Assembly: GCA_964016885.1 (NCBI GenBank)
Contig: OZ024742.1
Coordinates: 47,864,001-47,928,000 of the forward strand
Source: Eledone cirrhosa
Taxonomy: Eukaryota
DNA: 64,000 bases
Direction: 5' to 3'
Part shown: piece after piece, positions 29,477 to 63,605 of the stretch
Layout of the letters: each line of letters begins with the position of its first letter
Position numbering within the stretch: the first letter of the stretch is position 1
Position numbers and translations under genes: made by a program
Notes under the pieces: generated by a model
Seen by the model: only the letters and a program-made list of their open reading frames with translations
What the model was told of the DNA's origin: nothing
Databases searched by the model: none

Positions 29477-29551
<75 letters not shown>

Positions 29552-29830
29552 AATGGAATAGAATGAAACGAAATTTCATTTCTCACTCTTAGTACGGCAC
29601 TTACTTAAATGTAAGTATGTATGTATGCGTACATATATATATGTATACAGACGTACAGTAGTATGTATATATATATACATACATGCACAGATATATATAT
29701 GCACGTATCGGTTTACCGAACAGTTATTATAATGCTTGGTTTGTTTGTTTGTAAACAAACAAACAGCCCGGATTACGCAGTACAGTGTTTAGGCAACCAC
29801 GTCACCTTTTTGTTCAACACAGACACAGGA

Positions 29831-29873
29831 ATGATGTACTAGTTTCAAGCTTATTAGCTCTCGTCAGCATCGT
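29831..29873 (-). ncRNA. Type I HHR, family B
   Basis: ACGATG-CTGACGA-GAGCT AATA AGCTT-GAAA-CTAG-TA-CATCAT. Confidence 0.9.
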
Positions 29874-30282
29874 ATATCTTCCTGCCAGATGGTTGAACGT
29901 CTGAAAGTATATACTTTCCTTATGCATATTAACGGCTGAGCAGCCTAATTTGCATATCGAGTGAGTTCAGTCGGCTGGGCGCACCGAAAACGATAAATGG
30001 AATAGAATGAAACTAAATTTCAGTTCTCACTCTTAGTACGGTACTTGCTTAAATGTAATTATGTATTTATGTATACGTACATACATATATGTATACAGAC
30101 GTACAGTAGTATGTAGATATATACATACATACACATATATATATATATATATGCACGTATCGGTTTACCGAACATTTATTATAATGCTCGGTTTGTTTGT
30201 TTATAAACAAACAAACAGCCCGGATTAAGAAGTACAATGTTTAGGCAACCACGTCACTTTTTTGTTCAACACAGACACAGGA

Positions 30283-30325
30283 ACGATGTACTAGTTTCAA
30301 GCTTATTAGCTATCGTCAGCATCGT
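30283..30325 (-). ncRNA. Type I HHR, family B (intact)
   Basis: ACGATG-CTGACGA-TAGCT AATA AGCTT-GAAA-CTAG-TA-CATCGT. Confidence 0.92.
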
Positions 30326-30472
30326 ATACCTTCCTGCCAGATGGTTGAACGTCTGAAAGTATATACTTTCCTTATGCATATTAACGGCTGAGCAGCCTAA
30401 TTTGCATATCGAGTTAATATGCATAAAGAAAGTATATACTTTCAGACGTTAAACCATCTGGCAGGAAGGTAT

Positions 30473-30514
30473 ACGATGCTGACGTTAGCTAATAACTTGA
30501 AACTAGTACATCGT
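30473..30514 (+). ncRNA. Family B HHR, mutated (A9U, 1-nt deletion in stem II)
   Basis: ACGATG-CTGACGT-TAGCTAATAACTT-GAAA-CTAG-TA-CATCGT. Confidence 0.8.
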
Positions 30515-30912
30515 TCCTGTGTCAGTGTTGAAGAAAAAGGTGACGTGGTTGCCTAAATACTGTACGGCGTAATCCGGGCTTTTTGTTTGTTTATAAACAG
30601 ACAAACCGGGCATTATAATAAATGTTCGGTAAACCGATACGTGCATATATATGTGTGCATGTATGTTTATATATATACTAATGTACGTCTGTATACATAT
30701 ATATATGTACGTACACATACATGCATACTTAGATTTAAGTAAGTGCCGTACTAAGAGTGAGAAATGAAATTTCGGTTCATTCTATTCCATTTATCGTTTT
30801 CGGTGCGCCCAGCCGACTGAACTCACTCGATATGCAAATTAGGCTGCTCAGCCGTAATTTGCATAAGGAAAGTATATACTTTCAGACGTTCAACCATCTG
30901 GCAGAAAGGTAT

Positions 30913-30955
30913 ACGATGCTGACGATAGCTAATAAGCTTGAAACTAGTACATCGT
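30913..30955 (+). ncRNA. Type I HHR, family B (intact)
   Basis: Identical to the family consensus. Confidence 0.92.
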
Positions 30956-31635
30956 TCCTGTGTCAGTGTTGAACAAAAAGGTGACGTGGTTGCCTAAACA
31001 CTGTACGGCGTAATCCGGCTTTTGTTTGTTCACAGAGAAACAAACCGTGCCTTATAATAAATTTTCGGTAAACCGATACGTGCATATATATATGTATGCA
31101 TGTATGTATATATATATACATACTACTGTACGTCTGTATACACATATGTATGTACGTATACATACATACATTCTTATATATATATATATATTTATATATA
31201 TAAATATATATGAGAGAGAGAGAGAGAGAGAGGGGGAGATAGAGAGAGAGAGAGAGAGGGAGGGAGATAGAGTGAGCAGATAATCAAGGTGCTTATCCAT
31301 GGAGGTTCTGCCGTAACTCTGCGAGGACCAAGAGGTTTAAGCAATCCAAATGCTATATGCTATTCACGACAGTAGTTTATCCCCAGCTAAATGTTGATGA
31401 TTAGGTGTGACGGAGTTTCCATATATGAAATTTTAAGACAGGGTTACATTTGCATAATAGTTTTATTGCATTATATATATTAAAATGACATAGATATGCA
31501 ATGGTTATATCATTAACTGTTTCTATGTAGCATCATAAGATGCTCATACAATTATGAGTTGTCGAAATGCCGGCGGTAAAATATTACCATCTTGGTGTGA
31601 TGATAGTGAAACAATTGCATAACCATATCATTGAA

Positions 31636-38039: not shown

Positions 38040-38400
38040 GTCTCTGATTTGCTGTCAGTGCACACGTGCACGTTCCGATAGTGCATTTCCAGTTTGACCG
38101 ACATATAGTTCTATACAATTCAGGCATTTAATGCAGTAAATTAGATATCTGCTTTTGCAGTTCATATTTGCATTTGGGAATATTTTTCCAGTTTTTGTGT
38201 TCATATATTGACCGGTGTGTATGGATTGACATGTGCCACATCGACTATCATTGCATTTAGATACAGTGAATGATTGATCTTTGTTGTTAAGGTCAAACTT
38301 TGCTTTTGTTAGTAATTGCTTCAAATGTTTAGGCTGTCTTTTACTAAGAGTCAAAGATCGGTGTGTGATTAAGCCTTTTAATTCATTACTTTGAGCAAGA
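38040..38400 (-). pseudogene. PLE4 GIY-YIG endonuclease fragment (Neptune-like Cys linker)
   Basis: KRQPKHLKQLLTKAKF...CNDSRCGTC...MNCKSRYLIYCIKCLNCIELYVGQTGNALSERARVH. Confidence 0.88.
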
Positions 38401-40673
38401 TCGGTAGGTTTGCTTTGGCAGTGTTGAAGATATTCTGGTGACATGGGTTGTGTGTCATTATAATGACACACAACTCATGTCACCAAAATATGTGTTACTT
38501 CCAATGTGTTACTCGTCAGCAAGTATGTTGTAGCTATCTCCTTAATTTGGATTGCTACAGCAGAACATTTAATATGTGATATTATATAACATTCACGTGA
38601 CCATAGTGTCTATACATTCTCTCAATATTTACATAACGATAGTTGTGGTAGATTTAATCATCGCGTGTCTGCTGTATTATATTAGTGAATCAGTTATGGT
38701 GTTTTATCAAACACCGAACATTGAGTTTTTGTTGGAATGTTCAATACATTCTGGTTTGTGGAATGAATCGTTGTAGTTAAATTTGCATTAGTTTAAAATT
38801 TGCTATGTGTGTGATACCTTAAGACATACGGTTTTTGTCCCGACTGGGTTCCCACGCCTTTCTATTTATCACAAGATTCTGTTCTGAGAAGGATTCCTCT
38901 AAATATAAGAGATTTTAAAAGGTATCGTGAGGATAACCTTTAACTAAAAGGCAATTTTCGTCAATATTGTGTATCAGTATTACCACTGCTTACGTTTTAG
39001 GGAATATAGTATTTCGTCTGCCATGAGTTCTAGTACATTTTGCTTACTATACTCTTGTTCGCATCAACATTTTCATGCTTATGTAAGCAATTCTAGAATA
39101 TATTTTACGAAATAGAAAAGATGAGCTGCTATTGTTTTCAAAGACAGTATTCTTGCGGTTATCTATGATGTATGAACATTTTGTTAGGCCAAATACCCAA
39201 GCCATACATCAGCTGAATATCTCCAGCTGTTTTCTAGCGTTATAAACATTTCTAGTGCAAAACTTTCGATTGTCAACAAAGGAATTATAGATTCTATTAG
39301 AATATTGTCAGTCACAGTGTGACTGCTGGAGTGAATATATCGCCAACATAAACAGAAACCCAGACAGTCAGCCTCTTCTGGATATTCTTTCGGAATATAT
39401 TAATAGAACGATCACTGCAGGTATCTGTGATCTGTTCCTGCCACGTGCTTGCAGCTAAATAAAGACATGAATTTATTGTCCAGTAAATATCGTTACATGC
39501 TTTCATATAGTCTACAGAGATAACATAAGTATATTTTATCTTGAAAATGGTTGATAATTTCCCACCCTTGTCAAAAGAGTTACGTTTATCATCTAATGAT
39601 ATCTAGGGAAACTCGGAACCCAATTTTCTGAGATAGTTTCCAAATGTTAGAGTTTGCTATATTTTGGAATCAATTTGGCGTCTCGAGATACGCGAATTTC
39701 ATGCTTCCATCTGAAGGCGACAAGCCCATCGCCAGTTTTTTTCGGGGAGAGATGGAGATTGCAATATAGCTAAGCAAGGCTACAACATGTCTCTTGTTGA
39801 TTCACATTACGTACGATGCGATGTGTTTGGGTTCATTGAATCTGACTATACTGCAGTTTTTGGTGGTCTTACAAGCGCCCGTCACACACTTGCTAATTTG
39901 CTATGATCCTTGACGATATGTGAATTTTAGAGGCGGCCTTAATACGCTTTGTAGTAACTATATAATTAAGTTGTGAACGTTTACTAGAGAGCTATGAATG
40001 TCACGCATTGCTCGATCTTCCCTAGTAGCTGAGCGCTGTTTGGAGTGGAGTCATTTACTCGTCCGCCAGAAGACAACTTATATCGCAAATAACCATCATA
40101 CCTGGTGGCCATATCAGTATTTGCCACCTGCAACACGTTCACTAACGGCGGATTTAGTGGGTCAAGTCAGACATCGAGTCAAAATAATTGAGATGTTTCA
40201 ATATAATTGTATCTCAGCTGAAATAGAAACTGAGTTAATTCACAGAAAGAAATGAGTCGTATGGCAATATCAAACGCCTTTGTCGATGTTTGCAAACACA
40301 CACATAAAGACACACATATATACATATACGCATACACACACTAACATCCTTATTAATAGTCAATTCTACCTTATAGTAGGCCTTATAATGATACTATAAT
40401 ACAGAAAACTGTATTTTCGAATCTCTTTATGAAACGTTCTTAACAATTACGCATACCAATTGTAAACATCTGGGTGTATATCATGGGAAATATAGATTTT
40501 CTGTCAAAATATAATACATTGGGTGTTAATGTAACCAATAAGAACGAATTAATATGTAAAGACTTTAAGTACGGTAGATGAAAATTACATACATTTTCCT
40601 TCGAACTTCTAATACAGCCACATCTGTGAAGATGACTATTTTCATATTTTAATGTTATCCTCAACCCATATAC

Positions 40674-44980: not shown

Positions 44981-45619
44981 TTACTTTGTTCTCTCTTCTT
45001 CTCTGGAAGAAATCAAGTGTGTTCCACATTGGAGATGGGATATGCTCTGTCACAACAACGCCATCAATCTCAACACCACACACACTTCCAACGCCATAAC
45101 TAACACTCCAGTTGAAGTCAATTCCCAAATGGAACAGCTTGCTGTAGCTAATTATATTTTCTATTTAGTTCGTGCTAACCATACCTCCTATATCACCACC
45201 ACCAGCAGCATCAACAATAACACTGACACACCAGCAATATCACTAACCCTATCAACTGGAGCAACACCTGTAAGAGGTCAGTTTAATCGATGATATCAAC
45301 TGCAATTATGATTTCAATTCGGCACATATTTATTAATTTTCAATTCCCCCCCCCCACCCCGAACCGTTATGATATGGGATATAGTATTAACAAATTTCAT
45401 TTTTCTCCAACACATCTCTCTCTCATTCCCTCTCTCTCTCACTTCCTCACTCTCTATCTATCTATTTCTCTCTCTCGTCTATTTACATATATATATATAC
45501 CTCAATTCACACCTACATTTAAACACCCATCAGCACACAGGCGTCCACATCCACACATATATACATATAAATGTATATATATATTAATAAATAAATAAAG
45601 AATATATATATATATATAT

Positions 45620-46391
45620 ATAAATGGAAAAAAAGAAACGAAATTTCATTTCTCACTCTTAGTATGGCTGTTACTTAAATATAAGTATGTATACGTACAT
45701 ACATATATGTATACAGACGTACGGTAATATGTATATATATATACATACATGCACACATATATATATATGTACGTATGGATTTACCGAACATTTATTATAA
45801 TGCTCGGTTTGTTTGTAAACAAACATCCAGTATTAAGCCGTACAGTGTTTAGCCACCATCGTTGCTCGTTTGTTCAACACTGACAAAGGAACGATGTACT
45901 AGTTTCAAGCTTATTAGCTATCGTCAACATCGTATACCGTCCTGCCAGATGATTGAACGTCTGAAAGTATATACTTTCCTTATGCATATTAACGGATGAG
46001 CAGCGTAATTTGCATATAGAGTGAGTTACATAAGTATACATACTTATATTTAAGTAACAGCCGTACTAAGAGTGAGAAATGAAATTTCGTTTCATTTTTT
46101 CCATTTATCGATTCCGGTGCGCCCGGCCGATTAACTCACTCGTTATGCAAATTAGGCTGCTCAGCCGTTCATATGCATAAGGAAAGTATATACTTTCAGA
46201 CGTTCAATTATCTGGCAGGAAGGTATACGATGCTGACGATAGCTAATAAGCTTGAAACTAGTACATCGTTCCTTTGTCAGTGTTGAACAAAAGGGCAACG
46301 ATGGTTGCTATACACTGTACGGCTTAATTCGGGCTGTTTGTTTACAAACAAACCGAGCATTATAATAAATGTTCGGTAAACCCATACGTAC

Positions 46392-46425
<34 letters not shown>

Positions 46426-46462
46426 ATGTATGTATGTGTGCATGAATACATACTACTGTATG
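45620..46462. mobile_element. Retrozyme-like family B, locus 2: about 0.9 unit minus plus about 1 unit plus; junction about 46028
   Basis: HHRs at 45891-45933 (minus, C3U) and 46227-46269 (plus, intact). Confidence 0.9.
46227..46269 (+). ncRNA. Type I HHR, family B (intact)
   Basis: ACGATG-CTGACGA-TAGCTAATAAGCTT-GAAA-CTAG-TA-CATCGT. Confidence 0.92.
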
Positions 46463-50447: not shown

Positions 50448-50749
50448 GTGTGTGTGTGTGTATGTGTGTGTATCTGTTGTGAGTGTGTGTTGGTGTGTGT
50501 ACTATGTAAAGATATCAAAATATATACACAACGTATGATGACCCTGTTCTCAAAAGAAAAGCTCAATAGACGAGGGCTCAGAACATCAATAATTCACATG
50601 AAAAGATATACAGTATGTATATGTTGAATGAAAAAGCCTTTTACAAAGAAATAGTATTTTGTACATATAAATAAAGCACATAATAATCAGAAAAAATTAC
50701 CTACTTTATGAAGGAAATATTAGGGACATTTTCCTGAATATTATATGAT

Positions 50750-50930
50750 AGGTGGTTTCGTCGTATCGGTAGAGGGTTGGACACCATGCTTTCCAGCATA
50801 GTTACGTCCCTTTACGATCTGAGTTCAAATCCCACTGAGATCTACTTTGCCTTTCATTCTTACGGGGTCGATAAAATACAGTAATGCACTGGGTAATTGC
50901 TGGCCTTGTGCCAAGTGTAGAAGCAATTAT
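50750..50930 (+). mobile_element. SINE family 1
   Basis: CGTATCGGTAGAGGG...GAGTTCAAATCCC...GGGGTCGATAAAAT. Confidence 0.85.
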
Positions 50931-51198
50931 ATGATTTATATATGTGTACAAAATACTATGTTTCTAAAACGATGCATGGTTTTTCTCCATGTTTCTCCGT
51001 CCATACGTTTATATTTTCATTTGATATATATACATATATATTGGAATAAATGCTCTGAAATAGCGATATATATGTGAATATAGACATAGAATATTCGAAA
51101 ATATTCTGTATGTTTATAATAAACATTTTGAAGACCTAATCGCTATAGAATAGAATACGTCACGTATTACAATTAGATTCTCGATAAAAGCAAGGGAA

Positions 51199-51241
51199 GT
51201 AATCTACGCGTTTCATTCTTGTTAGAAATCATCAGGACTAC
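51199..51241 (-). ncRNA. Type I HHR, family A (10 copies at +310n, last at 53989-54031)
   Basis: GTAGTC-CTGATGA-TTTCT AACA AGAAT-GAAA-CGCG-TA-GATTAC. Confidence 0.93.
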
Positions 51242-54200
51242 ATATCCAGTGCTTTTATCGAGAATGACACAGCTAGAGACTTATAGAATACTTAGCTGTG
51301 TACAGGAACTGGTTTGAAAGAGCGGTTGCCGGTCCGGCAGAAATTAGAAATTGGAATAAATGCTCTGAAATAGCGATATATATGTGAATATAGACATAGA
51401 ATATTCGAAAATATTCTGTATGTTTATAATAAACATTTTGAAGACCTAATCGCTATAGAATAGAATACGTCACGTATTACAATTAGATTCTCGATAAAAG
51501 CAAGGGAAGTAATCTACGCGTTTCATTCTTGTTAGAAATCATCAGGACTACATATCCAGTGCTTTTATCGAGAATGACACAGCTAGAGACTTATAGAATA
51601 CTTAGCTGTGTACAGGAACTGGTTTGAAAGAGCGGTTGCCGGTCCGGCAGAAATTAGAAATTGGAATAAATGCTCTGAAATAGCGATATATATGTGAATA
51701 TAGACATAGAATATTCGAAAATATTCTGTATGTTTATAATAAACATTTTGAAGACCTAATCGCTATAGAATAGAATACGTCACGTATTACAATTAGATTC
51801 TCGATAAAAGCAAGGGAAGTAATCTACGCGTTTCATTCTTGTTAGAAATCATCAGGACTACATATCCAGTGCTTTTATCGAGAATGACACAGCTAGAGAC
51901 TTATAGAATACTTAGCTGTGTACAGGAACTGGTTTGAAAGAGCGGTTGCCGGTCCGGCAGAAATTAGAAATTGGAATAAATGCTCTGAAATAGCGATATA
52001 TATGTGAATATAGACATAGAATATTCGAAAATATTCTGTATGTTTATAATAAACATTTTGAAGACCTAATCGCTATAGAATAGAATACGTCACGTATTAC
52101 AATTAGATTCTCGATAAAAGCAAGGGAAGTAATCTACGCGTTTCATTCTTGTTAGAAATCATCAGGACTACATATCCAGTGCTTTTATCGAGAATGACAC
52201 AGCTAGAGACTTATAGAATACTTAGCTGTGTACAGGAACTGGTTTGAAAGAGCGGTTGCCGGTCCGGCAGAAATTAGAAATTGGAATAAATGCTCTGAAA
52301 TAGCGATATATATGTGAATATAGACATAGAATATTCGAAAATATTCTGTATGTTTATAATAAACATTTTGAAGACCTAATCGCTATAGAATAGAATACGT
52401 CACGTATTACAATTAGATTCTCGATAAAAGCAAGGGAAGTAATCTACGCGTTTCATTCTTGTTAGAAATCATCAGGACTACATATCCAGTGCTTTTATCG
52501 AGAATGACACAGCTAGAGACTTATAGAATACTTAGCTGTGTACAGGAACTGGTTTGAAAGAGCGGTTGCCGGTCCGGCAGAAATTAGAAATTGGAATAAA
52601 TGCTCTGAAATAGCGATATATATGTGAATATAGACATAGAATATTCGAAAATATTCTGTATGTTTATAATAAACATTTTGAAGACCTAATCGCTATAGAA
52701 TAGAATACGTCACGTATTACAATTAGATTCTCGATAAAAGCAAGGGAAGTAATCTACGCGTTTCATTCTTGTTAGAAATCATCAGGACTACATATCCAGT
52801 GCTTTTATCGAGAATGACACAGCTAGAGACTTATAGAATACTTAGCTGTGTACAGGAACTGGTTTGAAAGAGCGGTTGCCGGTCCGGCAGAAATTAGAAA
52901 TTGGAATAAATGCTCTGAAATAGCGATATATATGTGAATATAGACATAGAATATTCGAAAATATTCTGTATGTTTATAATAAACATTTTGAAGACCTAAT
53001 CGCTATAGAATAGAATACGTCACGTATTACAATTAGATTCTCGATAAAAGCAAGGGAAGTAATCTACGCGTTTCATTCTTGTTAGAAATCATCAGGACTA
53101 CATATCCAGTGCTTTTATCGAGAATGACACAGCTAGAGACTTATAGAATACTTAGCTGTGTACAGGAACTGGTTTGAAAGAGCGGTTGCCGGTCCGGCAG
53201 AAATTAGAAATTGGAATAAATGCTCTGAAATAGCGATATATATGTGAATATAGACATAGAATATTCGAAAATATTCTGTATGTTTATAATAAACATTTTG
53301 AAGACCTAATCGCTATAGAATAGAATACGTCACGTATTACAATTAGATTCTCGATAAAAGCAAGGGAAGTAATCTACGCGTTTCATTCTTGTTAGAAATC
53401 ATCAGGACTACATATCCAGTGCTTTTATCGAGAATGACACAGCTAGAGACTTATAGAATACTTAGCTGTGTACAGGAGCTGGTTTGAAAGAGCGGTTGCC
53501 GGTCCGGCAGAAATTAGAAATTGGAATAAATGCTCTGAAATAGCGATATATATGTGAATATAGACATAGAATATTCGAAAATATTCTGTATGTTTATAAT
53601 AAACATTTTGAAGACCTAATCGCTATAGAATAGAATACGTCACGTATTACAATTAGATTCTCGATAAAAGCAAGGGAAGTAATCTACGCGTTTCATTCTT
53701 GTTAGAAATCATCAGGACTACATATCCAGTGCTTTTATCGAGAATGACACAGCTAGAGACTTATAGAATACTTAGCTGTGTACAGGAACTGGTTTGAAAG
53801 AGCGGTTGCCGGTCCGGCAGAAATTAGAAATTGGAATAAATGCTCTGAAATAGCGATATATATGTGAATATAGACATAGAATATTCGAAAATATTCTGTA
53901 TGTTTATAATAAACATTTTGAAGACCTAATCGCTATAGAATAGAATACGTCACGTATTACAATTAGATTCTCGATAAAAGCAAGGGAAGTAATCTACGCG
54001 TTTCATTCTTGTTAGAAATCATCAGGACTACATATCCAGTGCTTTTATCGAGAATGACACAGCTAGAGACTTATAGAATACTTAGCTGTGTACAGGAACT
54101 GGTTTGAAAGAGCGGTTGCCGGTCCGGCAGAAATTAGAAATTGGAATAAATGCTCTGAAATAGCGATATATATGTGAATATAGACATAGAATATTCGAAA

Positions 54201-54459
54201 ATATTCTGTATGTTTATAATAAACATTTTGAAGACCTAATCGCTATAGAATAGAATACGTCACGTATTACAATTAGATTCTCGATAATATTTTCGAATAT
54301 TCTATGTCTATATTCACATATATATCGCTATTTCAGAGCATTTATTCCAATTTCTAATTTCTGCCGGACCGGCAACCGCTCTTTCAAACCAGTTCCTGTA
54401 CACAGCTAAGTATTCTATAAGTCTCTAGCTGTGTCATTCTCGATAAAAGCACTGGATAT

Positions 54460-54502
54460 GTAGTCCTGATGATTTCTAACAAGAATGAAACGCGTAGATT
54501 AC
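54460..54502 (+). ncRNA. Type I HHR, family A (also 54770-54812 and 55080-55122); predicted cleavage after 54496
   Basis: Same motif on the plus strand; GUA cleavage triplet. Confidence 0.93.
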
Positions 54503-55342
54503 TTCCCTTGCTTTTATCGAGAATCTAATTGTAATACGTGACGTATTCTATTCTATAGCGATTAGGTCTTCAAAATGTTTATTATAAACATACAGAATAT
54601 TTTCGAATATTCTATGTCTATATTCACATATATATCGCTATTTCAGAGCATTTATTCCAATTTCTAATTTCTGCCGGACCGGCAACCGCTCTTTCAAACC
54701 AGTTCCTGTACACAGCTAAGTATTCTATAAGTCTCTAGCTGTGTCATTCTCGATAAAAGCACTGGATATGTAGTCCTGATGATTTCTAACAAGAATGAAA
54801 CGCGTAGATTACTTCCCTTGCTTTTATCGAGAATCTAATTGTAATACGTGACGTATTCTATTCTATAGCGATTAGGTCTTCAAAATGTTTATTATAAACA
54901 TACAGAATATTTTCGAATATTCTATGTCTATATTCACATATATATCGCTATTTCAGAGCATTTATTCCAATTTCTAATTTCTGCCGGACCGGCAACCGCT
55001 CTTTCAAACCAGTTCCTGTACACAGCTAAGTATTCTATAAGTCTCTAGCTGTGTCATTCTCGATAAAAGCACTGGATATGTAGTCCTGATGATTTCTAAC
55101 AAGAATGAAACGCGTAGATTACTTCCCTTGCTTTTATCGAGAATCTAATTGTAATACGTGACGTATTCTATTCTATAGCGATTAGGTCTTCAAAATGTTT
55201 ATTATAAACATACAGAATATTTTCGAATATTCTATGTCTATATTCACATACATATATATATATATATATATATATGGGGGGGGTGTATAGTTTACAGAAT
55301 AAACGTAATGATAATTTGGCATCTCTACCCTACTTAGTATTG

Positions 55343-58031: not shown

Positions 58032-58077
<46 letters not shown>

Positions 58078-58085
<8 letters not shown>

Positions 58086-58635
58086 ATATATATATATATA
58101 TACATACTACTGTACGTATGTATACATATATGTATGTACGTGTACATACTTATATTTAAGTAACAGCCGTACTAAGAGTGGCAAATGAAATTTCGTTTCA
58201 TTTTTTGCGTTTATCGTTTTCGGTGCACCCGGCCGATTAACCCACTCGATATGCAAATTGGGCTACTCAGCCGTTAATATGCATAAGGTAAGTATATACG
58301 TTCAACAATCTGGCAGGAAGGTATACGTTGCTGACGATAGCTAATAAGCTTAAAACTAGTACAGCGTTCCTTTGTCAGTGTTGAACAAACGAGCAACAAG
58401 GGTTGCTAGACACTACGGCTTAATACGGGATGTTTGTTTATAAACACACCGAGCATTATAATAAATGTTCGGTGAATCCATACGTACATATATATATATG
58501 TGTGCATGCATGTATATATATATACATACTACTGTACGTCTGTATACATATATGTATGTACGTGTACATACTTATATTTAAGTAACAGCCGTACTAAGAG
58601 TGGCAAATGAAATTTCGTTTCATTTTTTCCGTTTA
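58078..58635 (+). mobile_element. Retrozyme-like family B, locus 3: about 1.3 units, 422-nt period; HHR at 58325-58367 with G12A
   Basis: ACTTATATTTAAG at 58148 and 58570; ACGTTG-CTGACGA-...-AAAA-CTAG-TA-CAGCGT. Confidence 0.9.
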
Positions 58636-58680
58636 TATATCGATAGATATAGATATATACATACAAATACACAGACACAG

Positions 58681-58743
<63 letters not shown>

Positions 58744-58832
58744 CAGAAGGGATATTCAACGTCTTGGTAAATCAACAAATATAAATGTTCATGACTGATA
58801 CAGAGCACTCGACATATTTTCTGGAGTATAAT

Positions 58833-61485: not shown

Positions 61486-63605
61486 TTAATTGTAAGTTGT
61501 GATGTTGCTGTTCCACTCATATTTTCTATTTAATTTTGGTTGTAATTCTTTTATGTTTATTGCCTCTGTAATTCGTCTAAACATTGCGTCTTTTCTGTGT
61601 GTAGATTCTATTTTTATTTCTATGTTCTCTAATTTACCCTTGTGTTCTATTTTAGCATGTTGGTAGAGTACATATGATTCTTTACTATCCTGAAGGTCTC
61701 GCCAGTGTTCATTTATCCGTTCCCCTACACTACGAGCTGTCTCACCTATGTACACTATATTTTTGTCTCTACATTGTCCTTCAGTACATCTTATGCTATA
61801 CACTACATTTCTAGTTTACAGTTAATATGGGGGCTTATTTTACAGGTTATACATTTCTTATCTATACATGAGGGTCTTTGAAAAGGGTATGTCTTGCTAA
61901 TAAGTGTTTTTACGGAGGTACCTGGTCTTTCTACTATCTTAATATTGAGTTTATGTTTATTTAGAGCCCTTCTAAATTTGTAAGCTAATTCACCTCCAGG
62001 GGTTGTATCGATGAACATTACATCCTGGTATTTATTGCTATCATACCATGAGTTTATTCTATTAGCCTTGTTGCTAGTTCTTTCTATTCTATTCCAAAAG
62101 TTGCTCCTATACAAGGGGCAGGTCCCATTTGTGTCATTATTTACCATTTTTTCCCATTTGGTTCTGGCTCCTCTATACACTCTGATTTTATCTCTCTGAT
62201 TGTAGCCAGAGAACTGCATACGGTGGATGAAGTATTGTATGTGTCTCTCTAGTTCTTCGGGGTTGCACATGCGGGACACGTTTCTCATCACCCGTACCAA
62301 ATCCGCAATCAGTATGTTGATTTTGGTATGGTCCGAAACGGCCGAGTTTCGGTGGATCAGATGTTTGGAAATCATGGGTTTGGCATAATGGGAATGGAGG
62401 ATTTGTTTTTTCGTTATTAATGGTATGTAACCAGAGTTCTGTGTCTAGTACAGGTAATCGATGGTTGGGGTGTTTACTTGGGTAGTCTATAGTAACTCTA
62501 ATGCTCTGGTGAATGGAATTAGCTATTTGCTGGATGCTTTCCATTGTGTTTTTCTCTAGTTCCTGACCGTTCTCTAGTGGGGATGTCTTAACTACGATGT
62601 TTATATCATCAACGTAGCGGGAGTACATTATCAGGGTTAAGGGGTCTTCTAATTGTTCTTTAAGTTTAAGTTTAAGTCTACTGTCCCACCATACCATGAA
62701 TAAGTTAGCTATGTCGCCTGCAATGCTAACACCAATGGCTGCTCCTTCCTCTTGGGCATATGTATTTCCATTAAATTTGAACATATGTTCCTTAAGGGAT
62801 AGTTTTATGCTGGCCCCTACCGCATGTGCAATTATTTTCTTCAGTTCATCCTGGTTTTCGGGTGTCCGTTCCATCTATCTGTGTGGGTTTTCTTGGCCAT
62901 TGAGGTAATGGTAGGTGGTTTGCCTCTTGTTGGTCTTGTAGGGCACAGGTTGCTAAGGTCATATGTGTCTAGGTAATTATTACTATAGGTAAGTTTAAGT
63001 AGAAGTCCCAGCTCACTGGTATCAATCCCACGGAACTCAACATTGCTCTCACTGATCCTTTTCTACGCATTTCTCCACAGCAAAATCCACGTCAATAGAT
63101 GGATACAGGGACACAACATCCATACTACCTATTATGCAGTTTGTTAGGTCCCTAGATCGGTTACTCACGCAGATTCTGCTAAGGAGGTCCTCCGAGCTGT
63201 CATACATCTGGGGACATTTCAATGATGGGGCGTATGATCAGGGAGAGGAAGTAGGACAGTCTGTAGTTACTAGCAATGTTAGCTCCACAGACTGGCCGTG
63301 TTGGTGGTCCCGCGACAGGGTCACTGCCCGTTTTATGGTCTTTTCGAAGCCCATACAACGCCGGCACGTCATTGTTCCAGAAAGTTGTTGGCAATCCTTT
63401 TGTTGGGCTGCATTATATTCGTCCACATCACCATATGGGCATTGAGGGCTTTTTCTCTATCCTCATGCTCCTGTGGTGTTACCTCTCTTGTGTTAGTGAT
63501 GTGGGGTTGCATTGCCTGGATGTAGTTTGGCAGGCTGTCAACCGACATTCTGCCAGACTTGTCTGTTGGAAAGCATGCTATCTCTCCATTACGAGAGCGC
63601 TGCAC
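61486..63605 (-). pseudogene. PLE3 RT and GIY-YIG polyprotein, frameshifted
   Basis: CFPTDKSGR; LYGLRKDHK; RPVCGA; GSMDVVSLYPSID; QEEGAAIG; YSRYVDD; LPVLD; MFIDTTPGGEL; VYIGETARSVGERINEH. Confidence 0.93.

Follow-up and report, generated by a model that had tools for sequence, protein, structure and literature searches.

Two-armed hammerhead arrays in the genome of Eledone cirrhosa: a young retrozyme probably mobilized by a Penelope-like element

The window, a stretch of 64,000 nucleotides from the genome of Eledone cirrhosa, contains a tandem array that probably represents a young animal non-LTR retrozyme, mobilized by a Penelope-like element (PLE) whose enzyme, primed twice, reverse-transcribed one ligated circle in rolling-circle fashion, as judged from the sequence anatomy of this and related insertions. 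A wider reading, in which the arrays preserve, genome-wide, the products of the PLE reaction with circular RNA, with the two subunits of a reverse transcriptase (RT) dimer working from different starts, and in which ADAR edits were copied into DNA as well, is tentative and, taken as a whole, somewhat likelier to fail than to hold. The family type is already known and its link to PLEs has already been proposed (10.64898/2026.07.22.740005; accessible parts of PMC7229834, PMC7761336 and PMC6765202), and the value of the finding is mechanistic.

Results and discussion

Array structure and hammerhead

Register alignment resolved 13.6 copies of a 310-nt unit (GC 34%) in two inverted arms with one substitution overall, and TRF was concordant (10.5 + 3.1 copies), both in agreement with the original prediction (Table 1). 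The left arm kept an exact 310-nt register over 51040–54287, with 53478 A>G as its sole substitution, and the right arm (54286–55250) had zero mismatches to the unit. The motif CTGATGA occurred ten times on the minus strand in the left arm and three times on the plus strand in the right one; there was no open reading frame of 100 aa across the array. The expected flip of orientation at an AA microhomology was recovered as well, the alignment placing both arms on these shared bases. The direct repeat anticipated at the flanks is present, albeit 12 rather than 11 bp long and with an identical interrupting C in both copies; once this target site duplication (TSD) is set aside, the element proper spans ~51042–55247. 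Unit positions are numbered from the base following the predicted cut (54497 = position 1). The long hairpin at unit positions 59–145 is a candidate RT-binding element.

Table 1. Coordinates of the features of the array in the window.
Feature	Position	Strand	Remarks
Left TSD copy, 12 bp ATACATATATAT	51030..51041	.	Within TA-rich DNA
Left arm, 10.5 units	51042..54287	-	Hammerhead sense on -; outer end at unit position 163-165 ('tail' start site B)
Arm junction, head-to-head	54286..54287	.	2-nt AA microhomology; unit positions 18 and 100
Right arm, 3.1 units	54286..55247	+	Hammerhead sense on +; outer end at unit position ~131 ('body' start site A)
Right TSD copy	55248..55259	.	Continues into (TA)n
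One type I hammerhead	54454..54506	+	Cleavage predicted after 54496
One monomer, unit positions 1-310	54497..54806	+	Predicted cut to predicted cut; highly self-paired by prediction
Long hairpin, unit 59-145	54555..54641	+	3' strand contains start site A; kept in older sister family; candidate RT-binding element
'Tail', unit ~132-163	54628..54659	+	Interval separating the two fixed ends; each insertion has it at a single end

In the hammerhead copy of Table 1, stem I pairs 54460–54465 with 54497–54502, the core CUGAUGA occupies 54466–54472, and helix II starts with a U·U pair (54473/54486), continues with 4 bp capped by an AACA loop and is followed by GAAA. Both the continuation of stem I past a UAU bulge and the AACA loop II were found as claimed. 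The description of the ribozyme as canonical type I stood for every core nucleotide but not for the helices, since a U·U opens helix II and helix III has 2 bp unless dimeric: within a monomer, the palindromic helix III closes 2 bp around a 2-nt loop, and alternatively the ACGCGU palindrome pairs in a dimer (computed −9.5 kcal/mol). All core nucleotides and stems I–II were intact in 13/13 copies, and the fold was more stable than its shuffles (z −4.4 and −5.8; equally stable shuffles 0/100 and 0/200). By the consensus, cleavage is predicted after 54496, 54806 and 55116. The ribozyme was found in one polarity only. The Rfam scan gave nothing at gathering level, with HH9 at 19.2 bits (cut-off 52, E 0.079). 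According to the accessible text of PMC7229834, the axolotl HHR_Amex1 has a weak palindromic helix III, and HHR_Amex2, whose helix II has a U·U at its base, cleaves and does so better as a dimer. In Xenopus, 8/9 predicted retrozyme dimers remained uncleaved in vitro (10.64898/2026.07.22.740005).

Family size, age and sampling

Copies were counted in the 3.0-Gb genome by exact pattern matching. In keeping with a cephalopod host, this genome encodes a molluscan hemocyanin with 4yd9, 6r83 and 1js8, proteins of squid and octopus, as its best single-unit matches. This genome-wide search supported the retrozyme reading: a 33-nt core had 4,568 exact copies (reversed control, 0), in arrays dispersed through the genome and mostly shorter than 25 units. 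Exact unit-to-(TA)n junction patterns numbered 955 and 442 at the two end sites, and the estimate for the family is roughly 1,000 insertions or more and, on the basis of 798 units in 92 sampled insertions, near 10,000 units. Single-unit differences in the 92 insertions amounted to only 0.00044 per base, errors included, so the family is very young; with one substitution in the window array, the very recent insertion that had been proposed is upheld. An older sister retrozyme family is resident in the same genome (5,482 exact 19-mer matches; 220/330 columns identical, 67%), and it has kept the tail motif, with the same spacing of ends in many cases.

The parsed set comprised the window and 90 loci, all 90 on one contig (C1), with 92 insertions. 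Ten loci came from the core list, 20 from a position-131 list and 60 from a position-165 list; in 80 of the 90, the choice was made by matching one end exactly, with the other left free. A further 20 held-out loci, likewise on C1, served for replication.

Insertion anatomy

Across the 91 loci including the window, 79 insertions were two-armed, with the order always minus then plus and the sense 3′ ends outward. The inversion described in the window is real, but it is the normal two-armed product rather than an accident of one concatemer. In the parse, a single arm was seen in 12 of the 92 insertions (one of them at an assembly gap, another at the edge of the parsed region), and one complex locus (L091) was left out of the counts. 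One end lay at site A and the other at site B in 76/76 two-arm insertions for which both ends could be seen, the remaining 3 of the 79 reaching the edge of the parsed region. This A/B rule held in 6/6 complete insertions of the held-out loci (82/82 in total) and also in 8 complete insertions of the core list, for which neither end had been selected. Site A lies at ~131 (130–139, blurred by TA) and site B at 163–167, twice at 170–172; outer ends ran into TA in 160/171 cases. The resulting one-sided tail of about 26–35 nt, again blurred by TA microhomology, accompanied the inverted copy in 82/82 complete insertions. TSDs measured 12 bp in the window and 15 bp in L034, most others being unreadable inside (TA)n.

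The 158 inner ends were uniform across the unit (chi-square p 0.24), without a pile-up at the cleavage site (4 within 3 nt vs 3.1 expected). Among the first 30 loci, the hammerhead seemed to contain too few inner ends, an effect that was gone with 90. Arm junctions lacked inserted bases in 57/79 cases, with a mean overlap of 3.07 nt vs 0.76 by chance, and carried 1–272 inserted bases in the other 22. The lengths of the two arms were correlated (rho 0.34, p 0.003).

Candidate partner element

An autonomous PLE outside the window (L181) was reached through a related hammerhead with 25/28 identical core bases and the same U·U. Its intact frame has 758 codons from stop to stop and 713 aa from the first Met (P0001), in which RWK-like and DKT motifs, a CxCx5C linker and, at the C-terminal end, a GIY-YIG with CxxC and CxH could be read by eye. 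The element also has a hammerhead and a (TA)n target and matches the description of the Hydra clade in the accessible part of PMC8557442 (section 11), to which it is here assigned by the motifs read by eye rather than by a tree. P0001 matched 0 Pfam families and had no useful PDB match; part of the members among its look-alikes in the Atlas carry GIY-YIG or RVT_1. After the cut, 13 of 30 copies of this PLE family end at +22/23 and 10 at +91/94, mostly in TA, with 3 running on and 4 ending elsewhere, and each of three close inverted pairs has one end of each kind. The tail is about 68 nt long vs about 33 in the retrozyme, and the likeness of the two start regions, tails included, was not significant (149/1000 shuffles as good). 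The element is a candidate supplier of the retrozyme's RT, in a comparison covering L181 among PLE families; a partner search by tail motif returned retrozyme copies only.

Template and alternative explanations

The simplest template for both arms would be one covalently closed monomer, read round repeatedly from both nicks. Insertion-marking variants occur in every unit of both arms, 31 haplotypes were present among 87 insertions, and the majority haplotype was common to both arms in 70/72 insertions (0.10 by chance), which bears out the original idea of one monomer copied repeatedly. PLE twin priming might instead use uncleaved linear multimers, or linear monomers with template jumps, given that the Anolis PLE used unprocessed RNA in vitro with its hammerhead dispensable (PMC11167929) and that the hammerhead here combines a weak helix III with a U·U pair. 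The same variant order in both arms of two insertions speaks for such templates as well: in L124 each arm changes haplotype once two turns are complete, in L052 the two arms have a variant in common at turn 0, and therefore ordered multimeric templates or joint template switches do occur. However, these two loci hold all 4 same-turn shared variants, compared to 59 single-unit variants left unshared although both arms cover the turn, whereas linear multimers with today's private load would give about 33 shared ones. Moreover, variants fixed across both arms, many of them private to one insertion, require a monomer bottleneck, jumps between monomers would mix the pool of haplotypes, and the inner ends do not accumulate where cleavage is predicted; linear templates are thus unlikely as the general route. 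Occasional multimers, template switches or sequential synthesis seem to be indicated by L124, L052, L104 and L130, and L104 (276A>G throughout one arm and in part of the other) and L130 would be better accounted for by two templates or by sequential synthesis. A pair of RNAs transcribed at one source locus may also have served as templates. Fold-back on the first cDNA is disfavored by the uniform inner-end distance (KS p 0.64), an A arm longer in 34/76 insertions and the order in L124, which is wrong for it.

The alternatives to a PLE-copied circle as such are weaker still. An autonomous viroid-like RNA, passing from RNA to RNA or between species and only occasionally integrating, would agree with the number of haplotypes and with 20 sequencing runs (16 studies, 17 organism labels) in which 0.76–1.00 of the sampled unit words were present, none of these runs being listed as RNA. 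It is nevertheless very unlikely, considering the single ribozyme polarity, the older, 67% identical sister family resident in the genome, and the 4 examined of these 20 runs or sister runs: the raw Hi-C data of organism J (1,938 million letters) had no read on the unit and none on the host SINE, X1 and X10 showed low-depth coverage of the unit together with a few contigs of the host SINE, and X4 contained host-like DNA (8,384 records). Judged by these four, the matches under the 17 labels look like carry-over or close kin, and horizontal transfer is unsupported; the label 'viroid-like replicon' was dropped, the ribozyme having one polarity and no sign of RNA-to-RNA replication being seen. Local expansion of a solo PLE-like terminal repeat to a minisatellite via unequal crossing-over might explain patchy shared variants in a few arrays (L054, L037, L036), where some DNA exchange or assembly noise took place, but both inverted arms are multi-unit and share private haplotypes, their inner ends are fractional and random, their lengths are correlated and the short arrays are dispersed, which makes it extremely improbable. 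Hardly credible, finally, is an assembly or chimera artefact: homogeneity was judged from the assembly rather than raw reads, and consensus polishing can smooth tandem units, yet chimeras would not yield haplotypes differing by locus, fixed and unequal outer ends, constant polarity and TSDs.

Proposed mechanism and comparison with known systems

In the preferred scheme, the array would be transcribed, the hammerheads, probably as dimers, would cut the transcript into monomers, and a host ligase would circularize the 310-nt monomer. A dimer of the PLE RT-endonuclease would bind one circle and nick both strands of a (TA)n target, and cDNA would be primed at each nick, one from unit position ~131 and the other from ~163–165. 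The number of turns that each RT makes in rolling round the circle would be random, and the two cDNA ends would be joined via microhomology or short fill. Since the two subunits of one dimer would occupy different start sites, the one-sided tail and the inverted copy of PLEs would follow. The Penelope-like RT of the original prediction is supported by the 82/82 A/B ends, the two-arm polarity and the TA targeting, and the A/B rule appears to be the PLE tail signature on a retrozyme, adding the use of one site each per insertion. In L1 twin priming, two cDNAs are made from two target strands with 3′ ends outward and a microhomology join; such events are in the minority, the template is a linear RNA and the second site of priming is random. 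In comparison, the two-armed product is the majority outcome for the retrozyme, and both sites are fixed.

The assignment to animal non-LTR retrozymes was confirmed by the tandem non-coding unit with a hammerhead in each, the dispersal and a TSD of >4 bp. In the accessible part of PMC7229834, such retrozymes likewise have a tandem 150–450-bp non-coding unit, a type I hammerhead each, low GC, a self-paired monomer and a TSD >4 bp; it reports demonstrated cleavage and circles (Acropora, Mytilus, axolotl Rtz331/Rtz353, newt satellite 2), which for the Eledone family are predictions, and it mentions neither fixed ends nor inversions with two arms nor a targeting of (TA)n as seen here. According to the accessible part of PMC7761336, animal repeats lack any motif that would point to their partner. 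PLE insertions have a head-to-head inverted 5′-truncated copy and a 30–40-bp tail at one end only (accessible parts of PMC8557442 and PMC3846280). The purified Anolis PLE (Poseidon), a predicted dimer, nicks and extends both strands, and its RT has two neighboring internal start sites, with the genomic tail as the interval between them (PMC11167929). The retrozyme resembles endonuclease-bearing PLEs (Poseidon, Hydra clade, Adineta Penelope, as far as the accessible descriptions go) in the inverted truncated copy, the one-sided tail, the two internal RT starts downstream of the hammerhead and the AT-rich/(TA)n targets, but has no ORF, and each arm consists of many turns of one 310-nt unit. The Xenopus retrozymes, seen as PLE derivatives, likewise co-occur with PLEs and have a similar hammerhead; that study relied on co-occurrence and phylogeny and discussed local unequal crossover, whereas here insertion anatomy leads to rolling-circle twin-primed integration (10.64898/2026.07.22.740005).

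In the literature searched, with subscription journals and repeat libraries largely beyond reach, there was no cephalopod retrozyme; within the same limits on subscription journals, neither a two-armed fixed-end retrozyme anatomy nor an ADAR imprint on retrozymes was found. A 12-mer was absent from one supplementary table of PMC8557442, in which Octopus Naiad elements are listed. Two questions, the integration route of retrozymes and the inverted copy with one-sided tail of PLEs, meet here in one system, which offers some 1,000 reaction products with hardly any mutations, a substrate of 310 nt on which two start sites are mapped, and a natural, intact candidate enzyme of 713 aa.

A>G variants

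Variants fixed throughout an insertion were enriched in sense-strand A>G (10/29 vs 11/112 single-unit variants; Fisher p 0.002), an excess noticed after the fact; the T>C control was even (4 fixed vs 19 single-unit, p 0.79). When 37 haplotypes were placed on parsimony trees, 8–10 of the 11–12 extra steps fell on the 10 A>G sites and 1–3 on the other 21 sites. In the linear fold, 9/10 fixed A>G sites lay within predicted A-U pairs. The recurrent sites 20, 259 and 276 all have a 5′ U, found at 22/56 paired A and the preferred neighbor of ADAR; cephalopods are known for heavy RNA editing. Because these three sites never appear among single-unit variants, A>G arises on the template rather than while copying. 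There is about an even chance, as judged from these variants, that the pattern consists of ADAR edits written into DNA; if so, edits of RNA would have a way into the DNA of the germ line, and RNA editing would drive heritable change of the retrozyme. Selection for pairing or template switching could contribute. Fixed variants kept 11 base pairs and broke 7, compared to 14 and 49 for private ones (p 0.003). The structure-only control, A-U to G·U at 9/56 sites vs G-C to G·U at 1/32, was not significant (p 0.086), and avoidance of the 12 core positions (0/29 fixed vs 4/112 private) involved too few variants for significance. On the 20 held-out loci, where the A>G excess had been set beforehand as the test, 0/2 new fixed variants were A>G, too few to judge by and no confirmation of the excess, and 20G recurred on a new background.

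Sequence changes within and between insertions

The unit of the young 310-nt family carries a common inherited variant at position 287 (counted from the base after the predicted cut), which was present in 15 insertions of the main sample and in 4 from the held-out loci, and with which the base of helix II regains its Watson-Crick pair. This variant was the sole form present in the contig from run X10, a run under another organism label that we read as carry-over. Single insertions also changed haplotype along their length. L124 lies on C1 near 136.72 Mb; in each of its arms 284A/294T marked the two outermost turns and 287A every inner turn, which can be read either as a joint template switch or as an ordered multimer. 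At L104 (C1 near 61.29 Mb), 276A>G occurred at all turns of the A arm (outer end at unit position ~131), and in the B arm (outer end at ~163-165) it appeared after four turns, as if an edit or switch had taken place during synthesis and the arms had been produced one after the other.

Features of the window and of other loci in the same genome (G000)
Feature	Location	Remarks
Older sister retrozyme family	L042:7330-7710; L061-L090	period ~313-322
Second, older hammerhead tandem family	window 29549-31182, 45557-46451, 58060-58756	- then + arms
Unit position 287	window 54473, 51228	site of a common inherited variant
G+C-rich insert of unrelated sequence, captured at arm junction	L037:2899-3170	272 nt
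Penelope-like element (PLE) fragments	window 10149-12936, 13594-14334, 38055-38474, 61486-62874	RT + GIY-YIG pieces
Diverged copy of very abundant host SINE-like repeat	window 50742-50944
Several multi-unit hemocyanin genes	C1:173.7-173.9 Mb; C26:21.9-22.0 Mb; C27

Related hammerhead families and Penelope-like elements

The older sister family differs from the young one in helix II and has a full helix III. Since the hammerhead core of the young family is nearer to that of the Hydra PLE, its candidate RT partner, than to that of the sister family, the young family may be a chimera. The second tandem family, with a unit of ~450-500 nt, was also found at L094, L053 and L110 and shares the two-armed layout of the young family.

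The PLE fragments of the window represent at least three families, all interrupted by stops or frameshifts. Genome-wide, a Hydra-PLE 23-mer was strand-skewed (3,830 forward vs 1,637 reverse), which suggests one or more large tandem blocks. At L185 (C1:83.68 Mb), at least ten terminal pieces of the Hydra PLE lie in tandem with a spacing of ~1,070 nt, each closed by TA; this is a local array with PLE end plus flank as the repeat.

Other repeats and genes

Run X4, read as host-like DNA under another organism label, gave 8,384 matching records, nearly all at the SINE-like repeat. The hemocyanin genes accounted for 39 domain matches.
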